From: Escherichia phage a20
Length of the DNA: 64,000 nt
Sequence record: OQ067374.1
Reading direction: 5' to 3' (one strand)
Below are positions 11,122 to 40,296 of this stretch, piece by piece (within the stretch, counting starts at the first letter, position 1; the number at the start of each line of letters is the position of its first letter). A program made the position numbers and the translations under genes. Below the pieces are notes generated by a model. The model had not been told where the DNA came from, did not search any database, and saw nothing but the letters and a program-made list of their open reading frames with translations.

Positions 11122-12222
11122 TTACGCTGTGAAGATTTTATCCCACATCGCAACAACTGCATCTCGGTTATACTTCTTCCATACTGCTTCAGCACGTTTA
11201 ACTCGAGCTTCGTATGTGTCAGTGAATTCTAATACAGCTTTTGTGTAAAGCGCAACTACTTCTTTCTTAGGAGTAGAGGAATCAATTTCTACACGCACAG
11301 TATCTGGGTCGTATTCGAATGTCGCATGAGGATAATCCTTAAAAACTAACTGGATTACAGGGACACCTTTAGAGATGGCTTCAATAGAACTATTCTCTAC
11401 CGTACCTGTGTCAGGACACGTATTAATAAGTGCTTTAGCCGTTTTAAGACGTTCCATGATTTCACTGTGTGGAGCATCAATAATAACAGGATATTTAGCT
11501 GGTGGTGCCCATTTACTAGGACAGTATCCTACACCATTTTCGCCTAGTGCTTTAATCGCTTCAAGAGCAACATCAGTACGACGCATTTTAGTGTCATAAC
11601 GTTGTGCACTAATAATCAGATCAGTCGCCGGAAGAACTTCAGGTTTCTCATTCAAACAAATAACCGGATAATCTTCGGCTTCAAACAACGGATTTGCTCG
11701 CCAATAATCATAATCGATTTTGTCAGTCAGACCTGAAGTCATATAACAATATTTGCGTTCAAATTCACGGAAGGCTTTAGTAGGAGCATAACTCTTACCG
11801 CCATTCTTATGAATTTGAATAGTCTGGTCCCAAATTTGAACAATGCCACGAGATACTGGTTCAAATGGTGTTGCCATAAAATTCTTATGAACTTTAGAGA
11901 GACCTGCGTCTTTAATTGCCTGAACGGTTAGTTTAGTCGGTTCCATAGTAACAACAAAATCGTATTCATGGATGCCGGCTAGTTCAACAATCTTACGAGC
12001 CATAGTATAACTCATACCTAGACTGAATTTAGTCAGATGACCAACAGGATGGTGTGTAACTTTCCAGTCACCAAACATGTCATTATCAAAGCCGATATAA
12101 TCAATATCGGCACCGATAGAAACTAAATATTTCAACACGTTCAAATGAACCGCTTCAAGACCACCTTGTACACGGTCAGGATTAAATGGGACTGCACGAG
12201 ATGGGATAAACATAACTTTCAT
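11122..12222 (-). CDS. putative GT-B fold glycosyltransferase (candidate DNA hmC sugar transferase)
   Basis: 366 aa; N-terminal MKVMFIP...GGLEAV...LVSIG and C-terminal ...ENSSIEAISKGVPVIQ motif typical of GT-B (GT4-like) enzymes; sits between rIIA.1 and gene 39 where T4 has gene 60/mobA. Confidence 0.55.
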   Translation of the reverse strand: MKVMFIPSRAVPFNPDRVQGGLEAVHLNVLKYLVSIGADIDYIGFDNDMFGDWKVTHHPVGHLTKFSLGMSYTMARKIVELAGIHEYDFVVTMEPTKLTVQAIKDAGLSKVHKNFMATPFEPVSRGIVQIWDQTIQIHKNGGKSYAPTKAFREFERKYCYMTSGLTDKIDYDYWRANPLFEAEDYPVICLNEKPEVLPATDLIISAQRYDTKMRRTDVALEAIKALGENGVGYCPSKWAPPAKYPVIIDAPHSEIMERLKTAKALINTCPDTGTVENSSIEAISKGVPVIQLVFKDYPHATFEYDPDTVRVEIDSSTPKKEVVALYTKAVLEFTDTYEARVKRAEAVWKKYNRDAVVAMWDKIFTA

Positions 12223-24664: not shown

Positions 24665-25186
24665 TCAGTAACCATTATCCTGACGTTCAAAGTTGTGTTG
24701 GTTTTTCAAGTAGTAAAGTTTAAAGATTTCTTCAGCGGAAAGACCCAGACCTTGGAACATATTCAGAACAAAGTGGAGGATATCAATCATCTCGAATTTA
24801 ATTTCAAGCTGGTCTTCAGGAGACAGTTCATCGATACGACGATTTCGATATTCAGCATGTTGTGCTTTCCATGGCTTCCATACAGAGCTAGCGGTTTTCT
24901 CACCATTGCTCATACCACCAAGTGAAGTCAGCAGTTCACGGAATTCATCATCAATATAATCTTTCTGATTACGCAGCCAATCAACAACATCACCAGCAGT
25001 GGCCAATTCATCAGGATGTTTGTTATGTTCAGGCTTGTCATTTGCCAGACGAACCTGTAAAGATTTCTGCATATCAAGCATTACCTGCAGTGGGTCTTTA
25101 TCTTCGTGAATCAGAGCATTAAAATAAGCTTCTTCTGCTTTATCAACACCAGAAATAAGTTGTGAACATTCGTTAAAGTGTGCCAT
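24665..25186 (-). CDS. 56: dCTP/dUTP pyrophosphatase (MazG-like dCTPase, gp56)
   Basis: 173 aa from MAHFNECSQLISGVDKAEEAYF...; longest ORF begins with a non-ATG codon 15 nt upstream; T4 gp56 171 aa. Confidence 0.85.
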   Translation of the reverse strand: MAHFNECSQLISGVDKAEEAYFNALIHEDKDPLQVMLDMQKSLQVRLANDKPEHNKHPDELATAGDVVDWLRNQKDYIDDEFRELLTSLGGMSNGEKTASSVWKPWKAQHAEYRNRRIDELSPEDQLEIKFEMIDILHFVLNMFQGLGLSAEEIFKLYYLKNQHNFERQDNGY

Positions 25187-33045: not shown

Positions 33046-33594
33046 TTAACGAGCCCATTTGATGATTTCTGTAATCAAAACATTACGTTCGCTTGCATTA
33101 AATCCTATAACTTTGTTAGCACCATCATGATTAAGTAATTGATACGTTTGGATTTTGTTATGAATTGCAAACTCTTCAAAATGTGAAATGACTGTATTAA
33201 AACCGAATGAAGACAAAGTAATAAGGTCGTCTTCAAAACTTTCAGTCATTTCGTTACGTGTTAAAATAATTGTGAACACATCATGGTTTTGGCAAAGACG
33301 AACATAATCCTGTTCATAAACGTCAAGAACCGAGTCCGCATCTTGTCGAATACGTCCATAAACCCAGTTACTAATATATCCACGGTCTAACAGATAAATC
33401 TTAGTAGGGTCTAAATAATTCAACATCGTTTCGAAACAGCCAACTTCATTTCGAGACTTAACATCGAAACGTCCATCAACTGTTCGTTTAGGGAAATCAA
33501 TCTTTACATATCTTTCACTAATTTCCATTATGTCATTAATGAAAGTTGTTTTACCAGCATTATCCGGGCCATCTACTAAAATAATTTTAGCCAT
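33046..33594 (-). CDS. P-loop nucleotide/nucleoside monophosphate kinase-like protein (thymidylate-kinase-like)
   Basis: 182 aa; Walker A LVDGPDNAGKTT and LLDRGYIS (DR-Y motif) as in dNMP/thymidylate kinases. Confidence 0.55.
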   Translation of the reverse strand: MAKIILVDGPDNAGKTTFINDIMEISERYVKIDFPKRTVDGRFDVKSRNEVGCFETMLNYLDPTKIYLLDRGYISNWVYGRIRQDADSVLDVYEQDYVRLCQNHDVFTIILTRNEMTESFEDDLITLSSFGFNTVISHFEEFAIHNKIQTYQLLNHDGANKVIGFNASERNVLITEIIKWAR

Positions 33595-33595
33595 T

Positions 33596-34495
33596 TTATT
33601 CCTCGATTACGACATCTTCATATTTAGGTATATTATACGGTGAAGAAATTAAAGCATTAAAGTAGATGAACTCACCAAGACCTGGATGAAATACTTCTTC
33701 AGGATTTTCGAAATATTGAATCTTCGGACGTCCTTTAAGAATTTGATAGTATTCAGTTTTAGTTGGTTTAAAAATTCGAATCAACGCTTCTTCAGGATAC
33801 TTATTTCTGTCGAAGCTATTATTTGGATCGGTTATATAAAGCGGTTGGCCTAATTGAATTGCACATTCAACCACTTGTTCAAAACGATAGCATGGGTCAC
33901 TAATTCGAAATGGATGAAAAATACCATCTAGATGAATAGGAGCCAAATCACCTACAAGACGCTGCATGATGGAAGGACGTATAACTTTCTGCGTTACGAT
34001 AATCTTATTACCATCTGCACCTGCGTTAACCAGCACTTCTTTTTGACGTTCATTCAACACAGTAGTTTGAAGTGAACGATTAACCGACAACATATCGGTT
34101 TTTAAGAATTCGTCAATATAAAAACGTGGTTTATTAGGGTCTGCAGTGATATTGAAATTGAATTCTACATCAAAAGCGCCGTCATATCCGGTGATATCTG
34201 TGATTAGAAAATCACAATCATAATAAGCAATTAATGAATCAACCACAAATTCATTTTCAGTCCAGAAATATTTACGAGTGTTATACGCGTTATCTTTATA
34301 CCATAATGGAACAAACTTAAATTCTGGGAAAAGACGTTCACATTCTTTAATATCAGATGCATTACGTGGATATGTAATCACATCACCTGGATTAGCACGG
34401 TGCAAATGAAGTTGGAAGTTGCCATCCTTAAGGATAGCATACTGCCCAGTTTCATAAGACCGCATACTCAAAATAGGTACGCGGAAAATAGCCAT
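33596..34495 (-). CDS. protein of unassigned family occupying the T4 beta-glucosyltransferase position (candidate DNA-modifying transferase)
   Basis: 299 aa; no motif recognised; adjacent to the hydroxymethylase; T4 has bgt between uvsX and 42. Confidence 0.5.
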   Translation of the reverse strand: MAIFRVPILSMRSYETGQYAILKDGNFQLHLHRANPGDVITYPRNASDIKECERLFPEFKFVPLWYKDNAYNTRKYFWTENEFVVDSLIAYYDCDFLITDITGYDGAFDVEFNFNITADPNKPRFYIDEFLKTDMLSVNRSLQTTVLNERQKEVLVNAGADGNKIIVTQKVIRPSIMQRLVGDLAPIHLDGIFHPFRISDPCYRFEQVVECAIQLGQPLYITDPNNSFDRNKYPEEALIRIFKPTKTEYYQILKGRPKIQYFENPEEVFHPGLGEFIYFNALISSPYNIPKYEDVVIEE

Positions 34496-35211
34496 TAGTC
34501 AAGGAATCCTTTAACATAATCAAAATCACGTTCAAACACATGGGCACTTACCATGGTATGAGTATAATCACCAACTTCTACACCACATTCGTTAGCGATA
34601 TAATGAAGTAATTTTCCTTGGAGATAAAAATCCAACTGCATAACAACAGCACAGTTCTGAGAACGCATATGACAGTGGGTATAAAGCTTACCATCACGAA
34701 TATAATAAGTCACTGAGTCAGTACATGGATATTCAAGAGTTTCGTCCGAATCAAGCAAAGCCTGATCAGAACTTTCTAGAATTTGGAACACAACTCTTCG
34801 AGAGTTAGGCTTCTCTTTAAGTTCTTTTAGAAGAGCTGGTAATTGGGCCGCAATGCGAGGACCATAGAAAGTGTTGAAGTTCGCCGGCAAAACATCTGAT
34901 TTTGGTTTAGAAATAAATTTAGCGACATTAGGATATGCCTTAAACGCTTCTTCTGCGTTGGTACCACCAGAAATCATAAACTTCCAGAAGTCTTCGGCAT
35001 ATTCATAAGAGATGCGGTTAATACGTGGGTCAGTCATTTTGAATGATGATGGAGTGTCAACAACTACTGTCATAGACCCAATTTCATTACAACGTCCAAT
35101 ACGAGAATCAGTTACGAATTCCGGGTTTTCTAAAATTTCACGATTGACTGCTTTAAATGCGGTTTGAAAATCTGCGGCTTTGATATATTTCATTGTGTTA
35201 TGTTTTCCCAT
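34495..35211 (-). CDS. 42: thymidylate-synthase-superfamily pyrimidine hydroxymethylase (gp42-like, divergent)
   Basis: 238 aa; ...KPNSRRVVFQI...EYPCTDSVTYYIRDGKLYTHCHMRSQN... (catalytic Cys context and R-S-x-N/D region of TS/dCMP-HMase fold); position of T4 gene 42. Confidence 0.7.
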   Translation of the reverse strand: MGKHNTMKYIKAADFQTAFKAVNREILENPEFVTDSRIGRCNEIGSMTVVVDTPSSFKMTDPRINRISYEYAEDFWKFMISGGTNAEEAFKAYPNVAKFISKPKSDVLPANFNTFYGPRIAAQLPALLKELKEKPNSRRVVFQILESSDQALLDSDETLEYPCTDSVTYYIRDGKLYTHCHMRSQNCAVVMQLDFYLQGKLLHYIANECGVEVGDYTHTMVSAHVFERDFDYVKGFLD

Positions 35212-35253
35212 GTTTACCTCAATACAATTTATTATATACTCAATTCATAAAGC

Positions 35254-35493
35254 TTATTTGAATTTCTTAGCGATGTTGATATAACGTAAAGCTTCAGCAT
35301 CGATACTTCCAAGAACACTATGAAGAAATGCATCAGCGTAGTATTCCAATTGAACAGGTTCTTTAATCACTTTAGCCGCTTTGGTTCCAAACAGGCCCAT
35401 AAGGGCCTTTTTAAGAATTTGTTCATTAGTGTTCAGTTTCATAGTCAAAATCTCTTCATTAAGTTGGTGGTTAAAAGTTTTTCTAGAAATCAT
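35254..35493 (-). CDS. hypothetical small protein
   Basis: ORF track, 79 aa. Confidence 0.45.
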   Translation of the reverse strand: MISRKTFNHQLNEEILTMKLNTNEQILKKALMGLFGTKAAKVIKEPVQLEYYADAFLHSVLGSIDAEALRYINIAKKFK

Positions 35494-36650
35494 TCTGGGT
35501 ACCTCAAAGCGTCATCAGAGTTAGTTATATCAATAATAGATATAGAATTTTCTGATAACCCATTTTTAGATAACTGACGTTTATAATATCTTTCACAATA
35601 TGTACACGTCGTCCCGCAGATTTCATTAGCACAATCGAAATCTGGATGTCTGAACCACCTTTTTTCTAAAAAGCCATCTAACAAAGAGGTTTCAATATTT
35701 ACTGTATGTGAAAACTCAGTTTCGTTTTCAAGAGTGAAAATAGTCTCTAAAGGCTTCCACAGTTCTAACAAATTACCTTCAAACTTTTCAGAAGCGTATG
35801 CTTCAAGAACTTTCAAAATGTAGTCTGTGCTACCTGTACGTCCTGAAACTTTGAATTGAGTGATACCAATATCATTATAAAGTTTCAAATCTTGAGGACG
35901 AACAAAACGAGTTCTCAACCAGTTAAATGGGTCTGTATCACGAGCTTTAATGCAGTGTTGCATTGGATATCCGTTTAAGGATTTAGCATCATCAGCTGTA
36001 ACATCAGTACTATGGAAAATATAGCAAGAGTCACGATAGCTACAATGTGTTGTATACCCTTTACCAGCATTAGAACAGAACTCATTTACAAGAACTTCAA
36101 ATATTATATTGTTCTTATTGCAAAACTCTGCTGCACGCTTCAGGAAAGAAACTGAACGGTTCTTATGAATTCCACAGCAGACCTTTTTGATATTATATTG
36201 GTCATGCAAGTATTTGATTTGAGTTACAGCATCGACATGTAGAATTGTTGAAACTTCAATCTCAATGTCTTTATTGACTTCACGAACAATTTCCATAACA
36301 ACAGGGTTAGCGATAGTAATACGCCATACGCCTATTGACCAAAGATACTGAACATAATCCTGAATAGCTTTCTTCTTCCACTCAACTAGTTCTCTTTTTG
36401 AACCAGGATTTATCGTGTTGAGTGTATAGTTAAAGCAAATACCTAATTCGTTACAACGTTTAACGTAATCTTCTAACATCTTTTTGTCAACGTCAGGAAG
36501 CCTAAAATCAGGTCTGGCTGCTACAAAAGCCATTTCTCTTGTAGAGCCGTATACTTCGTTTATCAAGCTATTAGGATAAGTTTTATTGAGCTCTACGATT
36601 TTATCAAGAAGAGCTAAATCAAAATTCGTTCCAATTTTAAAAGTATTCAT
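35490..36650 (-). CDS. Cys-rich putative Fe-S enzyme of unassigned family
   Basis: 386 aa; clusters KKVCCGIH, EFCSNAGKGYTTHCSYRDSCY and C-terminal DCANEICGTTCTYCERYY (contains a CxxxCxxC spacing). Confidence 0.5.
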   Translation of the reverse strand: MNTFKIGTNFDLALLDKIVELNKTYPNSLINEVYGSTREMAFVAARPDFRLPDVDKKMLEDYVKRCNELGICFNYTLNTINPGSKRELVEWKKKAIQDYVQYLWSIGVWRITIANPVVMEIVREVNKDIEIEVSTILHVDAVTQIKYLHDQYNIKKVCCGIHKNRSVSFLKRAAEFCNKNNIIFEVLVNEFCSNAGKGYTTHCSYRDSCYIFHSTDVTADDAKSLNGYPMQHCIKARDTDPFNWLRTRFVRPQDLKLYNDIGITQFKVSGRTGSTDYILKVLEAYASEKFEGNLLELWKPLETIFTLENETEFSHTVNIETSLLDGFLEKRWFRHPDFDCANEICGTTCTYCERYYKRQLSKNGLSENSISIIDITNSDDALRYPE

Positions 36651-36707: not shown

Positions 36708-37097
36708 TTATAGATTCGGTTTATATGATTTAAATGTTTCGAATTCGCCTTTATTCATAAGAGCTTTGAATTCGTCAGGACGCATAGCTTTGTCGTCGAT
36801 AATCCAATCATATACTGGTTTATGTGTTAGCAAATTATGGTACTTCAAACCAATGTTTTCCAAGTTCTGAATCAGACTTGGGAGAATGTCAATTGCTATA
36901 CGTCCAGGACCTACTGACTTCATACCGCGAGCAGTGTAAAGCGTTATGGTATGCCCTGCATCATACAGAGCATTAATAGCAGTCACCATTTCGACGTCTG
37001 GTTTGAAGTTCACGTAATCACGATTGTTATTCCACTCTGTTATACAATCATCGACGTCCACGCAAAGATGTAATGGTTTCATAGCAATATCCTTCAA
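36708..37097 (-). CDS. small HAD-superfamily phosphatase
   Basis: 129 aa; motif I LCVDVDDCIT (DxDx[T/V]), ITLYTAR, and K...IIDD; start may be the ATG 15 nt downstream. Confidence 0.6.
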   Translation of the reverse strand: MKDIAMKPLHLCVDVDDCITEWNNNRDYVNFKPDVEMVTAINALYDAGHTITLYTARGMKSVGPGRIAIDILPSLIQNLENIGLKYHNLLTHKPVYDWIIDDKAMRPDEFKALMNKGEFETFKSYKPNL

Positions 37098-37809
37098 TAG
37101 AATTTTTAATATTATCAGCTATACGCTTTCTAGGAATACCCGTTTTCTTTTCAGCTATCCTAAGAGATTCATAGTAATTTTCGTTTATTTTAACAAATTT
37201 TTGAGACTTGTGAGCATTTTTGCTTTCGTCCTGATATCGATAATTAAGATATTTAGGCGATTTTACTCTCTTTTGAATCGTGGCAGAAGATATACCCAAA
37301 TCTTTAGCCGCTTCCCGACAGGATTCATAATATTTGCCATCTACATTAATCTTTAGACCATGTAATGCAGGTTTACCATACCTCCTGTGCTTTTCTTTAC
37401 CCCTAGCTATAGATTCAGCTGACAAAGTTTTACCCCATCTTGGGTTTTTATCACCAACTAAACGTCCTTTATTTGCCTTAGAAATTTTATCCTTGGACCT
37501 TTGGGATAACCCGTCAGAACCGCCTTCGCCACCAGTTTTAAGATTGTAATAATTTGGGTCTTTAACTATGTCTAATGTTATTAGAGCCTTTTCAGCTATT
37601 TTTAATTCTTCTCTCGAGCTATGGTAGGAAATGATTTCTTTAAGAAAATTTTCCTTCCCGTATTTCCTTTCAGCCTTTTTATATAATTTACCAGAACCTT
37701 TATATAAATCTAAAGGCTCGGCTTCTTCAGCCGAGTGCATTCCTAAATAAACTTTACCGTTTATAAGATTAGTAGTTTTGTAGAGATAATGTATCAAATT
37801 CGTTCCCAT
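37048..37809 (-). CDS. GIY-YIG homing endonuclease (Seg-like)
   Basis: 253 aa; N-terminal HYLYKTTNLINGKVYLGMHS...YKGSG (GIY-YIG module), basic DNA-binding C-terminal region; overlaps both neighbours. Confidence 0.8.
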   Translation of the reverse strand: MGTNLIHYLYKTTNLINGKVYLGMHSAEEAEPLDLYKGSGKLYKKAERKYGKENFLKEIISYHSSREELKIAEKALITLDIVKDPNYYNLKTGGEGGSDGLSQRSKDKISKANKGRLVGDKNPRWGKTLSAESIARGKEKHRRYGKPALHGLKINVDGKYYESCREAAKDLGISSATIQKRVKSPKYLNYRYQDESKNAHKSQKFVKINENYYESLRIAEKKTGIPRKRIADNIKNSIEGYCYETITSLRGRR

Positions 37810-39479
37810 TGATGAGTGATATCGCCACCGATTGGACGATAGGAAACACCAGTTTCTTTATCAGTTAGTACCCATTTACCAGGATTTTTTGTAATCAGAG
37901 TAGCCGTTACAGGTTCTGCTACGTCATAACTAATAGAGCCGTCTTGAAGTACACGGCCCATATTACGTAATTGCTTAGTCAGAAGTTCCATACCTTTATA
38001 ATATGCGGCTACCGCTTTAAGTGGATTATTCTTGAAATAACCACCTAATGCAATCCAGATAATTGCCACTGCCAAATGATGATACTCGTTAAACGAACTC
38101 ATCTTTCCATATTTGTAAACTAATGGATTGATGTTAATAGTCACATTACAAGTTGTTTCATCAATAGTAAACTGTCCCCAGGTCGGATTAGCATTGAATT
38201 CATCATAACCTGAAACAGCATAAAGCACTTTAGCTTCATCATACAATTTTGGCCCGTAAATCTTGGTTTCGCCAAAATATCCACGAGGGTCGATAAACTT
38301 AACTTCGCCGTTATCAGTAATCATAGTATTACTGAAGTTCGGGTCACCATGAATAACAGAGTACTGTCCCTGAGAACGGTTATGATAACGAATAAGATGT
38401 TCTAAAGCTTGTTTCAGCATTGGCTTCAGACGTCCAATCTTAGTGTAGTTCACATGTGTGATTTTACCAAATGAATCAATCAATGGTTGAATGCTTTCAC
38501 AACGATCAATAACTTTCGTATAGAATTCTTTAGTGAAATCACGACGAACAGTTTCAGGACTTACAAAATAAGTGTCTGTGCTGAATTTCAGTGCATCTAA
38601 AATTGTATCAACAATTTGTGGACGAGCAAGACTTGATTTGGATTTAATATATTCAAATGCCGGCTTACCTTTAATGCGTTCCATTTCAAAGTTATTTTCA
38701 TTAACAGAAACTAACTGAGGGACTGAATCTGATTTCACTTTCAAATACCACGAAATCTCATCTTTCTGAAGAGCTCGGCCCTGTTCGGTTAATGCGAATT
38801 TAGTTACAGTTTCTTCACCGATTTCAACTGCATTAAAACTACGATTAAGTTCACGAACTTCATGAGCTTTTTCAAGTTTAGGCATATCACCTAAATCAAT
38901 TAGATTCATAAGCTCTGATTTATTGAATGCGCCGCTGTAAAGGAATTCTACGAAATCACGTCCTTTGCAGTATTCATGAATTTCTTCATCAGTAGAACCC
39001 ATATAGAATTCCCAGTCTTTGAACTGATAAATTCCTACAACATTACCACCTGTTGAACCTACGTTAGTGATATTTTCACCGTCGAAATTATATCGACATT
39101 CGTCGCCCTTAACATAGATTGCGTTAACATTCCAAGACCATGAACCAAAATCGGGAATAATATCACACCAGTTAACAATTACATTATGGCCGTCTAAATC
39201 TTTGTGTAATTTAGCAAGAGCATAAGCAGATCCATACGCTTCATCAACTGTACGAATAGTCACATTGAACCCTTCTTGCTCACAATAAGCTCGAACAGTT
39301 TCAGCAAATTTTGAATGAACTACTACAATAATTTCATCTGCGCCTAGGTCAGAATAAATTGTATACAAATTGCTCAGAATAGTGTCTTGTTTATAGTTAA
39401 CAAGCACCTTAGGAATATGGTGAGTAATTGGATATAAACGAGTTGCCAGTCCAGCACCAAGAATAACAGCTTTTTTCAT
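37794..39479 (-). CDS. bifunctional sugar-1-phosphate nucleotidyltransferase (N-terminal) / APH-ChoK-type kinase (C-terminal)
   Basis: 561 aa; N-term MKKAVILGAGLATRLYPIT...PKVLV (G-x-G-x-x-R-L nucleotidyltransferase signature, LicC/RmlA-like); C-term HGDPNFSNTMIT...VKFIDPRGY (Brenner HxDxxxxN and DxxG of aminoglycoside/choline kinase fold). Confidence 0.7.
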   Translation of the reverse strand: MKKAVILGAGLATRLYPITHHIPKVLVNYKQDTILSNLYTIYSDLGADEIIVVVHSKFAETVRAYCEQEGFNVTIRTVDEAYGSAYALAKLHKDLDGHNVIVNWCDIIPDFGSWSWNVNAIYVKGDECRYNFDGENITNVGSTGGNVVGIYQFKDWEFYMGSTDEEIHEYCKGRDFVEFLYSGAFNKSELMNLIDLGDMPKLEKAHEVRELNRSFNAVEIGEETVTKFALTEQGRALQKDEISWYLKVKSDSVPQLVSVNENNFEMERIKGKPAFEYIKSKSSLARPQIVDTILDALKFSTDTYFVSPETVRRDFTKEFYTKVIDRCESIQPLIDSFGKITHVNYTKIGRLKPMLKQALEHLIRYHNRSQGQYSVIHGDPNFSNTMITDNGEVKFIDPRGYFGETKIYGPKLYDEAKVLYAVSGYDEFNANPTWGQFTIDETTCNVTININPLVYKYGKMSSFNEYHHLAVAIIWIALGGYFKNNPLKAVAAYYKGMELLTKQLRNMGRVLQDGSISYDVAEPVTATLITKNPGKWVLTDKETGVSYRPIGGDITHQWERI

Positions 39480-39520: not shown

Positions 39521-39664
39521 CTAGTTAAAGCATTCATACTTTGCTTGTAGTCCAATCATAATCCATCCAATTACAAGTGTTGGAATCATTACCGGAGCCG
39601 TTAAGCTCCAGTAGATAGTCATGACAAGCATCAATAGTAAAAGTCCTATTGCTATTGCTTTCAT
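39521..39664 (-). CDS. small hydrophobic membrane peptide (47 aa) between the sugar-isomerase gene and the fused kinase gene
   Basis: Hand-translated MKAIAIGLLLLMLVMTIYWSLTAPVMIPTLVIGWIMIGLQAKYECFN; TAATG overlap with SIS gene stop; imm-like position. Confidence 0.4.
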   Translation of the reverse strand: MKAIAIGLLLLMLVMTIYWSLTAPVMIPTLVIGWIMIGLQAKYECFN

Positions 39665-40296
39665 TATTCGCCTCGTAACATGGCACCTAGTGCACCACCA
39701 GGGTGGAACTTAAGGAAATCATTAGAGGTAAATCCACGTTCAGACGAAAGGTTGATAGCAAACGTATCGATAAGCGCTAACAACAATGTAGTGGACATAG
39801 TCGGAGCCAGAGAATTCTCATCAACCTCTACTGCGATGCCTGTACAGAAAGAGTAATCAAAAAGGGCTTCATTTTCTTGTGGAATGTCTGGGTTACAATG
39901 CAACAGAATCTGTTTGACGTTCGGACGAATCATTTTAAGATGCTTAGCCACGCCTATCATTTCTTCAGTTTTACCAGAACGACTAATATGAATCAACACA
40001 TCATTAGGCGCAATGAATCCTGCATCACCGTGAGAATAATGCCCAGTGTTCAAGTACATACTCGGGATACCTAGTGAAGCAAAAGTCTCGGAAGCTTTAG
40101 TTGCGATATTAGCATTCTTACCAACACCTGTAATAATTACTCGGCTTTCATAATTACTAAGTCCCGGGCGTCGAAGAGTTTCTAGAATAGCATTATAACG
40201 AGCAGGGTTTTGACTAATTACTTTGGCCATAGCGGCCAAAGAAGAAGCTTGTTTTATGATTGCGTCAATAGCGATAGTAATAGGAGTAGTTTTCAT
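39664..40296 (-). CDS. single-domain SIS sugar-phosphate isomerase, KdsD/GutQ-type (arabinose-5-phosphate isomerase-like)
   Basis: 210 aa; VIITGVGKNANIATKASETFASLGIPSMYLN...SHGDAGFIAPNDVLIHISRSGKTEE...LAPTMSTTLLLAL...GFTSNDFLKFHPGGALG closely parallels KdsD core motifs; lacks CBS domains. Confidence 0.8.
   Translation of the reverse strand: MKTTPITIAIDAIIKQASSLAAMAKVISQNPARYNAILETLRRPGLSNYESRVIITGVGKNANIATKASETFASLGIPSMYLNTGHYSHGDAGFIAPNDVLIHISRSGKTEEMIGVAKHLKMIRPNVKQILLHCNPDIPQENEALFDYSFCTGIAVEVDENSLAPTMSTTLLLALIDTFAINLSSERGFTSNDFLKFHPGGALGAMLRGE

Follow-up and report, generated by a model that had tools for sequence, protein, structure and literature searches.

Gene and protein at the locus

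The stretch of DNA analyzed here (64,000 nucleotides of Escherichia phage a20, sequence record OQ067374.1; hereafter, the window) carries at positions 34495-35211 a gene for a protein of the thymidylate synthase (TS) fold, which we assign to the deoxycytidine monophosphate (dCMP) 5-hydroxylases of Mosigvirus phages. The listing of open reading frames (ORFs) contains a frame of exactly this extent on the minus strand, with an ATG start and 238 encoded amino acids (aa), and no second TS-family gene was found in the 64-kb window. The Pfam model of thymidylate synthase (PF00303, E 2.3e-15) matches only the C-terminal half of the protein (residues 122-235). The translation carries Y161-P162-C163-T164-D165-S166, with the catalytic Cys163, and R183-S184-Q185-N186, so that the TS-fold hallmarks cited by a first-pass annotation of this DNA, which had proposed a divergent hydroxymethylase at the gene 42 position, are indeed present. 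The placement was also a fair one, the gene occupying the T4 gene 42 slot between uvsX and the DNA polymerase gene, and the strong divergence from T4 gp42 was borne out by BLASTP (25% identity); the high identity to gp42 that had been named as a potential refutation was looked for and is absent. Overall, this earlier reading proved partly right (fold, divergence, position and cytosine substrate), its chemistry being wrong, as detailed below.

Closest relatives and their chemistry

The window protein is identical to gp48 of phage RB69 at 236 of 238 positions (99%, full length), the two substitutions being N85D and V107A. It is about 97% identical, also over the full length, to AfhB of phage HY126 (238 aa; PDB 9IQC/9IR2 and 9IQU; E 8e-161 to 9IQC), with five substitutions (T17S, E31Q, N85D, E87K and V107A); none of the changes in either comparison falls on a signature position. 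These two relatives share with the window protein the signature residues Cys, Glu143, Asn169 and Asp177 (numbering of ThyA, the thymidylate synthase of E. coli), the gene neighborhood and the phage genus. At the DNA level, approximately 150 genomes of RB69-like coliphages (Mosigvirus) match the 6.5 kb around the gene at 98-99% identity, NRG-P0074 most closely (99.1%); Mosigvirus NicPhage is 98.1% identical to the window in the hydroxylase region. The enzyme family is thus already known (published in 2025-2026, with a crystal structure available), and the window hydroxylase is one more, nearly identical member of it.

The chemistry of these relatives has been described directly. The DNA of RB69 and of Acinetobacter phage DLP3 contains arabinosylated 5-hydroxycytosine with the sugar on an ether bond (Lee et al., NAR 2026, PMC13326640). 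Expression in E. coli led to 5-hydroxydeoxycytidine (5hodC) in DNA for RB69 gp48 vs. 5-hydroxymethyldeoxycytidine (5hmdC) for T4 gp42; the product of RB69 gp48 takes up 18O from 18O2, and flavin mononucleotide is released from the protein, which is yellow when purified (PMC13326640). For the HY126 enzyme, a flavin-containing crystal structure and reconstitution in vitro are attributed to He et al. (Nat Chem Biol 2026, as cited in PMC13326640). By their titles, the PDB structures of this enzyme contain dCMP and flavin adenine dinucleotide (FAD), the entries in the Foldseek library reading "Monooxygenase dependent on riboflavin with dCMP and FAD" and "phage HY126 dCMP hydroxylase-AfhB with substrate dCMP". 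Finally, the DNA of NicPhage contains 5-arabinosyl-dC and 5-ara-ara-dC with no methylene, and the earlier hydroxymethyl assignment for RB69 has been called an error (PMC13390438). The base in phage DNA is arabinosylated 5-hydroxycytosine and no derivative of hydroxymethylcytosine; the hydroxylase chemistry corrects a long-held view of hydroxymethylcytosine in RB69-type phages.

Based on the 236/238 identity to RB69 gp48, the signature residues, the pathway genes present in the window and the DNA chemistry of NicPhage, the product of 34495-35211 is, with a probability of about 0.93, the Mosigvirus flavin- and O2-dependent dCMP 5-hydroxylase (also 5-hydroxy-dCMP, or 5hodCMP, synthase; AfhB), predicted to perform the first step toward arabinose-decorated DNA. 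Nothing in our data contradicts this assignment. Flavin binding and O2 use have been shown only on the 99%- and 97%-identical proteins, from which they are carried over to the window protein as predicted properties. The hydroxymethylase chemistry of the first-pass annotation has to be abandoned, as these proteins make 5-hydroxy-dCMP with flavin and O2 and not 5-hydroxymethyl-dCMP with methylene-tetrahydrofolate (PMC13326640).

The 2018 view of RB69 would turn the gene into a fast-evolving gp42 ortholog, i.e., a divergent folate-dependent dCMP hydroxymethylase whose product, hydroxymethylcytosine, is then arabinosylated. There are genuine similarities behind this view: T4 gp42 (PDB 1B5E, 6L18) is likewise a TS-fold enzyme acting on dCMP, with the catalytic Cys, an acidic residue at L143 and the specificity Asp at N177; its gene adjoins a DNA glycosyltransferase gene in the same genomic slot, between uvsX and gene 43; and many GenBank records read dCMP hydroxymethylase. 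Nevertheless, the two enzymes differ in cofactor and product (methylene-tetrahydrofolate and 5-CH2OH for gp42 vs. flavin with O2 and 5-OH for the hydroxylase), and for RB69 gp48 the hydroxymethylase explanation has been refuted by product analysis, which leaves it very unlikely for the window protein. Moreover, phmmer gives 46-50 bits for the window protein against ThyA and MilA (a CMP, or cytidine monophosphate, 5-hydroxymethylase of mildiomycin biosynthesis; PDB 5JNH, 5B6D) and about 30 bits for T4 gp42 against 9IQC, placing the hydroxylase no nearer to gp42 than to other branches of the TS family. Taken with the 25% identity to gp42, these scores therefore argue that the hydroxylase is not simply a fast-evolving gp42. 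MilA itself differs from the window protein in its length (approximately 320 aa), in the use of folate, in acting on a ribonucleotide and, judging by its D/D/G/D class, in keeping Asp at the 169 position.

Active-site and specificity residues

Active-site positions were compared in an alignment of the hydroxylase, E. coli ThyA (a reference exactly matching the PDB chains), T4 gp42 and 120 homologs of 53-100% identity. The nucleophile Cys163 corresponds to ThyA C146 (Cys in gp42), and the phosphate-binding R126, R127, R166 and S167 of ThyA to Arg138, Arg139, Arg183 and Ser184 (Arg, Arg, Arg and Ser in gp42), with His224 at H207 (His in gp42). Differences concentrate at four further positions: Glu160 at L143 (Asp in gp42), Asn186 at D169 (Asp), Val190 at G173 (Gly) and Asp194 at N177 (Asp). 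The window protein thus carries the residues of all four published signature positions (C146, L143E, D169N and N177D), and the corresponding Glu, Cys, Asn and Asp (at 143, 146, 169 and 177) are common to all 120 homologs. Pairwise BLASTP with T4 gp42, which is independent of the multiple alignment, likewise places N186 opposite T4 D171, D194 opposite T4 D179 and Cys163 opposite T4 Cys148. The combination of Asp169 and Gly173 typical of gp42 and other folate-using members is absent, the window protein having Asn186 (Asn for T4 Asp171) and Val190 there. Asn at ThyA position 169 was proposed by Lee et al. as a diagnostic separating hydroxylases from hydroxymethylases (PMC13326640), and Asn186 of the RSQN segment, which replaces the folate-binding Asp169, matches this hydroxylase signature.

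The first-pass annotation had rightly stressed the Asp/Asn specificity residue. The aligned residue is Asp194 (Asp179 in T4 gp42, Asn177 in ThyA), and its presence at the ThyA Asn177 position predicts dCMP, and not deoxyuridine monophosphate (dUMP), as the substrate. An ordinary thymidylate synthase converting dUMP to dTMP can accordingly be considered next to excluded, even though the Pfam and NCBIfam thymidylate synthase models are the only sequence-family matches and the name appears in many GenBank records as well as in the PDB molecule name. The NCBIfam matches are all far under the cut-off (e.g., 68 vs. 174.6 bits), and with Asp at 177, dUMP is ruled out and dCMP chosen as the substrate (Hardy and Nalivaika 1992; Liu and Santi 1992, as cited). 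The window protein shares with ThyA the fold, the Cys nucleophile, His207 and the arginines that bind phosphate. It differs in the N177D, L143E, D169N and G173V replacements; it is also shorter by approximately 30 residues and lacks the C-terminal tail that closes over the folate. Of the residues that define ThyA (Asn177, Leu143, Asp169 and Trp80/Trp83), the first three are Asp, Glu and Asn. The N-terminal half aligns unstably to ThyA, one MAFFT run placing Ala/Ile opposite W80/W83 and another Val/Phe; neither folate-stacking Trp is conserved, however, because the sole Trp of the protein is W76.

A further alternative is that another pyrimidine nucleotide (dUMP, CMP or deoxycytidine triphosphate, dCTP) is hydroxylated in vivo instead of dCMP. 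We regard it as highly improbable: Asp194 selects cytosine, the crystal structures hold dCMP, the gp56 dCTPase encoded in the window supplies dCMP, and 5hodC was seen in DNA upon expression of RB69 gp48 with a deoxynucleoside monophosphate (dNMP) kinase (PMC13326640), all of which outweighs the precedent of MilA, the closest folate-dependent structural relative, which acts on CMP.

Taken together, the residue comparison shows that the TS-family residues for dCMP binding and nucleophilic attack (Cys163, Arg138/139, Arg183, Ser184 and His224) are retained within a TS scaffold whose folate site has, as judged from sequence, become a flavin site. The hydroxylase would thus represent a notable cofactor switch, from a folate-dependent methyl-transfer scaffold to a flavin monooxygenase. 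The presumed mechanism would begin, like that of every TS-family enzyme, with addition of the Cys nucleophile (here Cys163) to C6 of dCMP; C5, once activated, would attack a flavin C4a-hydroperoxide made from reduced flavin and O2; and thiol elimination would release 5hodCMP.

Extent of the hydroxylase class

An exhaustive search of 1.84 billion representatives yielded 2724 relatives, the best 150 of which were classified by the same positions. Among these 150, 69 have Glu143/Asn169/non-Gly173/Asp177 and 42 have the Asp/Asp/Gly/Asp combination of the MilA/gp42 type, the first of the latter appearing at rank 76; at 169 and 173, all 42 depart from the window protein. By these ranks and residue classes, the hydroxylase class is therefore a coherent clade down to approximately 30% identity; it takes in a member of Pootjesviridae, Agrobacterium phage Atu_ph04.

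Within the broader hydroxylase-like class (Glu143, non-Gly173, Asp177), 23 of 92 full-length representatives have a residue other than Asn at position 169 (Ser in 11, Cys in 5, Asp in 5 and His in 2; among P0140-P0252). The D169N diagnostic is therefore not universal in this clade, and the representatives that depart from it may make a different product. In four representatives of 427-463 aa (P0124, P0126, P0127 and P0131), the hydroxylase-like domain is fused to a C-terminal histidine-phosphatase domain, His_Phos_1.

Asn at ThyA position 169 (the N of RSQN) has a practical value for annotation as a simple mark telling the hydroxylase from thymidylate synthases and dCMP hydroxymethylases, under whose names most GenBank records still carry it. 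In GenBank, the hydroxylase is variously named thymidylate synthase, dCMP hydroxymethylase, deoxycytidylate 5-hydroxymethyltransferase or hypothetical protein, mostly wrongly, and the PDB molecule name of the AfhB entry is thymidylate synthase. Neighboring genes are misnamed as well, the HAD phosphatase as phosphoheptose isomerase and the kinase/pyrophosphorylase as GlmU.

Gene neighborhood and predicted pathway

The features of the window that are relevant to the pathway are collected in Table 1. Gene order is the same as in RB69 and AlbertHofmann (Bas47): uvsX, the thymidylate-kinase-like gene, the 299-aa arabinosyltransferase gene, the hydroxylase, the 79-aa ORF, the U32 gene, the HAD phosphatase, the nucleotidyltransferase/kinase, the sugar-phosphate isomerase and the DNA polymerase. 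In T4, the order at the same place is uvsX - segA - beta-gt - 42 - imm - imm.1 - 43. The pathway proteins encoded in the window (dCTPase, UDP-arabinose synthesis and arabinosyltransferases) are 97-100% identical to those of Bas47, and domain searches confirmed the families of the isomerase, the phosphatase and the nucleotidyltransferase.

Table 1. Coordinates of the hydroxylase gene, its upstream region and associated features (window coordinates, except for the last row)
Feature	Position	Strand	Remarks
dCMP 5-hydroxylase gene (predicted 5hodCMP synthase; AfhB; RB69 gp48 ortholog)	34495..35211	(-)	ATG start, 238 aa, TS fold
Upstream region of the hydroxylase gene	35212..35253	(-)	GAGG ribosome-binding site, TATAAT and GCTTTA; from sequence only
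DNA arabinosyltransferase 1 (RB69 gp46:47 ortholog)	33596..34495	(-)	299 aa; assignment per PMC13326640 Table 1
Thymidylate-kinase-like nucleotide kinase (RB69 gp45 ortholog)	33046..33594	(-)	PMC13326640 Table 1; weak NCBIfam dTMP-kinase P-loop match
79-aa ORF (RB69 ORF049c ortholog)	35254..35493	(-)	Mosigvirus only
Peptidase-U32-family protein (RB69 gp50 ortholog)	35490..36650	(-)	Nine invariant cysteines
HAD-type sugar phosphatase (AfhF / RB69 gp51 ortholog)	36708..37097	(-)	DVDDC motif intact; PMC13326640
GIY-YIG homing-endonuclease gene	37048-37809	(-)	253 aa; between the kinase/pyrophosphorylase and HAD phosphatase genes
Bifunctional sugar kinase / UDP-arabinose pyrophosphorylase (AfhE / RB69 gp52:53 ortholog)	37794..39479	(-)	PMC13326640
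Arabinose-5-phosphate isomerase (KpsF/GutQ family; RB69 gp55 ortholog)	39664..40296	(-)	
dCTPase/dCDPase (gp56 ortholog)	24668..25186	(-)	
DNA arabinosyltransferase 2 (RB69 gp3 ortholog)	11125..12222	(-)	Between rIIA and the topoisomerase large subunit; PMC13326640 Table 1
U32 side-locus with chorismate mutase, for comparison	L006 3501-4903		

Placing the window genes by homology into steps that come from the literature gives the following model. The gp56 dCTPase would remove dCTP and supply dCMP to the hydroxylase; a phage dNMP kinase (RB69 gp159, outside the window) and the host nucleoside diphosphate kinase would convert 5hodCMP to its triphosphate, 5hodCTP; and the polymerase would insert 5-hydroxycytosine for every C. 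The isomerase, the kinase/pyrophosphorylase and the HAD phosphatase would make UDP-arabinose, from which the two arabinosyltransferases would add one or two arabinoses by an ether bond, with the resulting DNA being protected from restriction.

At its 3' end, the TAA stop of the hydroxylase gene overlaps the ATG of the arabinosyltransferase 1 gene (TAATG), and this overlap suggests translational coupling of the two. At the 5' end, GAGG at 35220-35217 (-) is located 6 nt ahead of the hydroxylase ATG, and directly upstream of the gene are TATAAT (35236-35231, minus strand) and GCTTTA (35253-35248, minus strand), with 11 nt between them, an arrangement which presumably resembles a T4 MotA-dependent middle promoter. 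This site is absent from the list produced by a generic sigma-70 promoter scan, and the generic promoter and terminator scans gave site numbers no higher than in shuffled sequence.

The GIY-YIG ORF overlaps the 5' end of the HAD phosphatase ORF, in which the first 12 residues differ from Bas47. Its insertion is covered by 3 of the 25 records listed; the others align in two pieces, with 89% coverage.

The neighboring U32 protein and the chorismate mutase of sister genera

The protein encoded at 35490-36650 matches the Peptidase_U32 family (PF01136, 42.2 bits vs. a cut-off of 22.4). Lee et al. give it only the table label "sugar or heterocycle reductase", with no discussion (PMC13326640), and our literature search, which did not cover He et al. 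2026 (where a role may be assigned), returned no role for the phage U32 protein and no explanation of its association with chorismate mutase. Among characterized U32 proteins, RlhA is needed for 5-hydroxycytidine in 23S rRNA and TrhP for 5-hydroxyuridine in tRNA, and UbiU/UbiV carry out O2-independent hydroxylations; these factors have Fe-S clusters and take the oxygen from prephenate.

Across 121 sequences of the phage U32 subfamily, nine Cys are invariant. The C203-x5-C209-YIFHS segment of the subfamily aligns with C-x6-C-YISHA in RlhA and with Cys180, a ligand of the Fe-S cluster, in UbiV; the spacing past C209 differs from the four-Cys motif CX6CX15CX3/4C (which has a UbiV variant) by which U32 hydroxylation factors bind a 4Fe-4S cluster, with x23 leading to a single Cys233, and the C-terminus bears an extra CX4CX3CX2C. 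No sequence match to solved structures was obtained, the family profile returning a spurious BIM1 match only.

By tblastn, the phage U32 gene was found in 221 records at an identity of at least 82%, the hosts among the matches listed being Enterobacterales or Shewanella. None of the approximately 91 Acinetobacter phage records with the hydroxylase is among these listed matches, and Acinetobacter phage Morttis (L012) has a collinear hydroxylase/arabinosylation cluster from which U32 and the small ORF are both missing. A type II chorismate mutase (Pfam 39.5 bits vs. a cut-off of 27) is encoded by the small ORF separating U32 from the hydroxylase in Klebsiella phage PWKp16, and chorismate-mutase homologs fill the U32-hydroxylase slot in 51 phage records from about a dozen other genera.

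The 79-aa ORF occupying this slot in the window overlaps with its start the U32 stop (ATGA) and has homologs (at least 78% identity) in Mosigvirus only. No support was obtained for its being a diverged chorismate mutase: BLASTP detected no similarity, Pfam gave nothing at E 10, and the hhalign probability was 0.15%. Its AlphaFold2 (AF2) model is all-helical and of low confidence (pLDDT 57).

More distant U32 homologs (approximately 50-58% identity) occur in phage-like metagenomic contigs, with no TS-fold gene within 8-10 kb of any of them. In two contigs (L007, L010), the gene directly follows that of dCMP deaminase; in another (L009), it is beside NT5C and deoxynucleoside kinase genes; and in L011 it overlaps a TAGT-like DNA glycosyltransferase gene, accompanied by dUTPase and UDP-galactopyranose mutase. 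Nucleotide kinases, UDG and DNA polymerase also appear in these contexts. These contigs may encode DNA-modification systems with U32 as the sole candidate hydroxylase. In contig L008, a separate His_Phos_1 gene is located near the distant U32 homolog.

The chemistry of RlhA, the chorismate mutase beside U32 in sister genera, the nine Cys residues, the TS-free distant contexts and the absence from phages of the strict aerobe Acinetobacter allow a tentative, rather doubtful suggestion, drawn by analogy: the U32 protein might belong with RlhA, TrhP and UbiUV among the Fe-S hydroxylation factors that depend on prephenate and work without O2, providing either a second, anaerobic route to 5-hydroxycytosine or an extra hydroxylation under gut conditions in which the flavin enzyme, for want of O2, would fail. 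T4-like phages carry both aerobic and anaerobic ribonucleotide reductases, a parallel to two hydroxylation routes. Several observations weigh against this suggestion. Dhakaviruses of E. coli and Salmonella (L016, L017) have a collinear cluster with neither the U32 gene nor the small ORF; the window contains no recognizable chorismate mutase, the 79-aa ORF not being detectably one; and the similarity of phage U32 to characterized E. coli proteins is weak (18.5 bits vs. 440 for the UbiU equivalog, and at most 13 bits for the phage-family hidden Markov model against the E. coli references). The strict proposition that U32 occurs only in phages of facultative anaerobes was set aside, being weakened by the Dhakavirus absence, and the Acinetobacter absence amounts to essentially one phylogenetic event. 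If true, the U32 branch would give prephenate-dependent hydroxylation its first example in DNA modification and would explain full DNA modification in gut phages when O2 is lacking.

In Dhakavirus, the kinase-like gene is upstream of the hydroxylase and not downstream of it.

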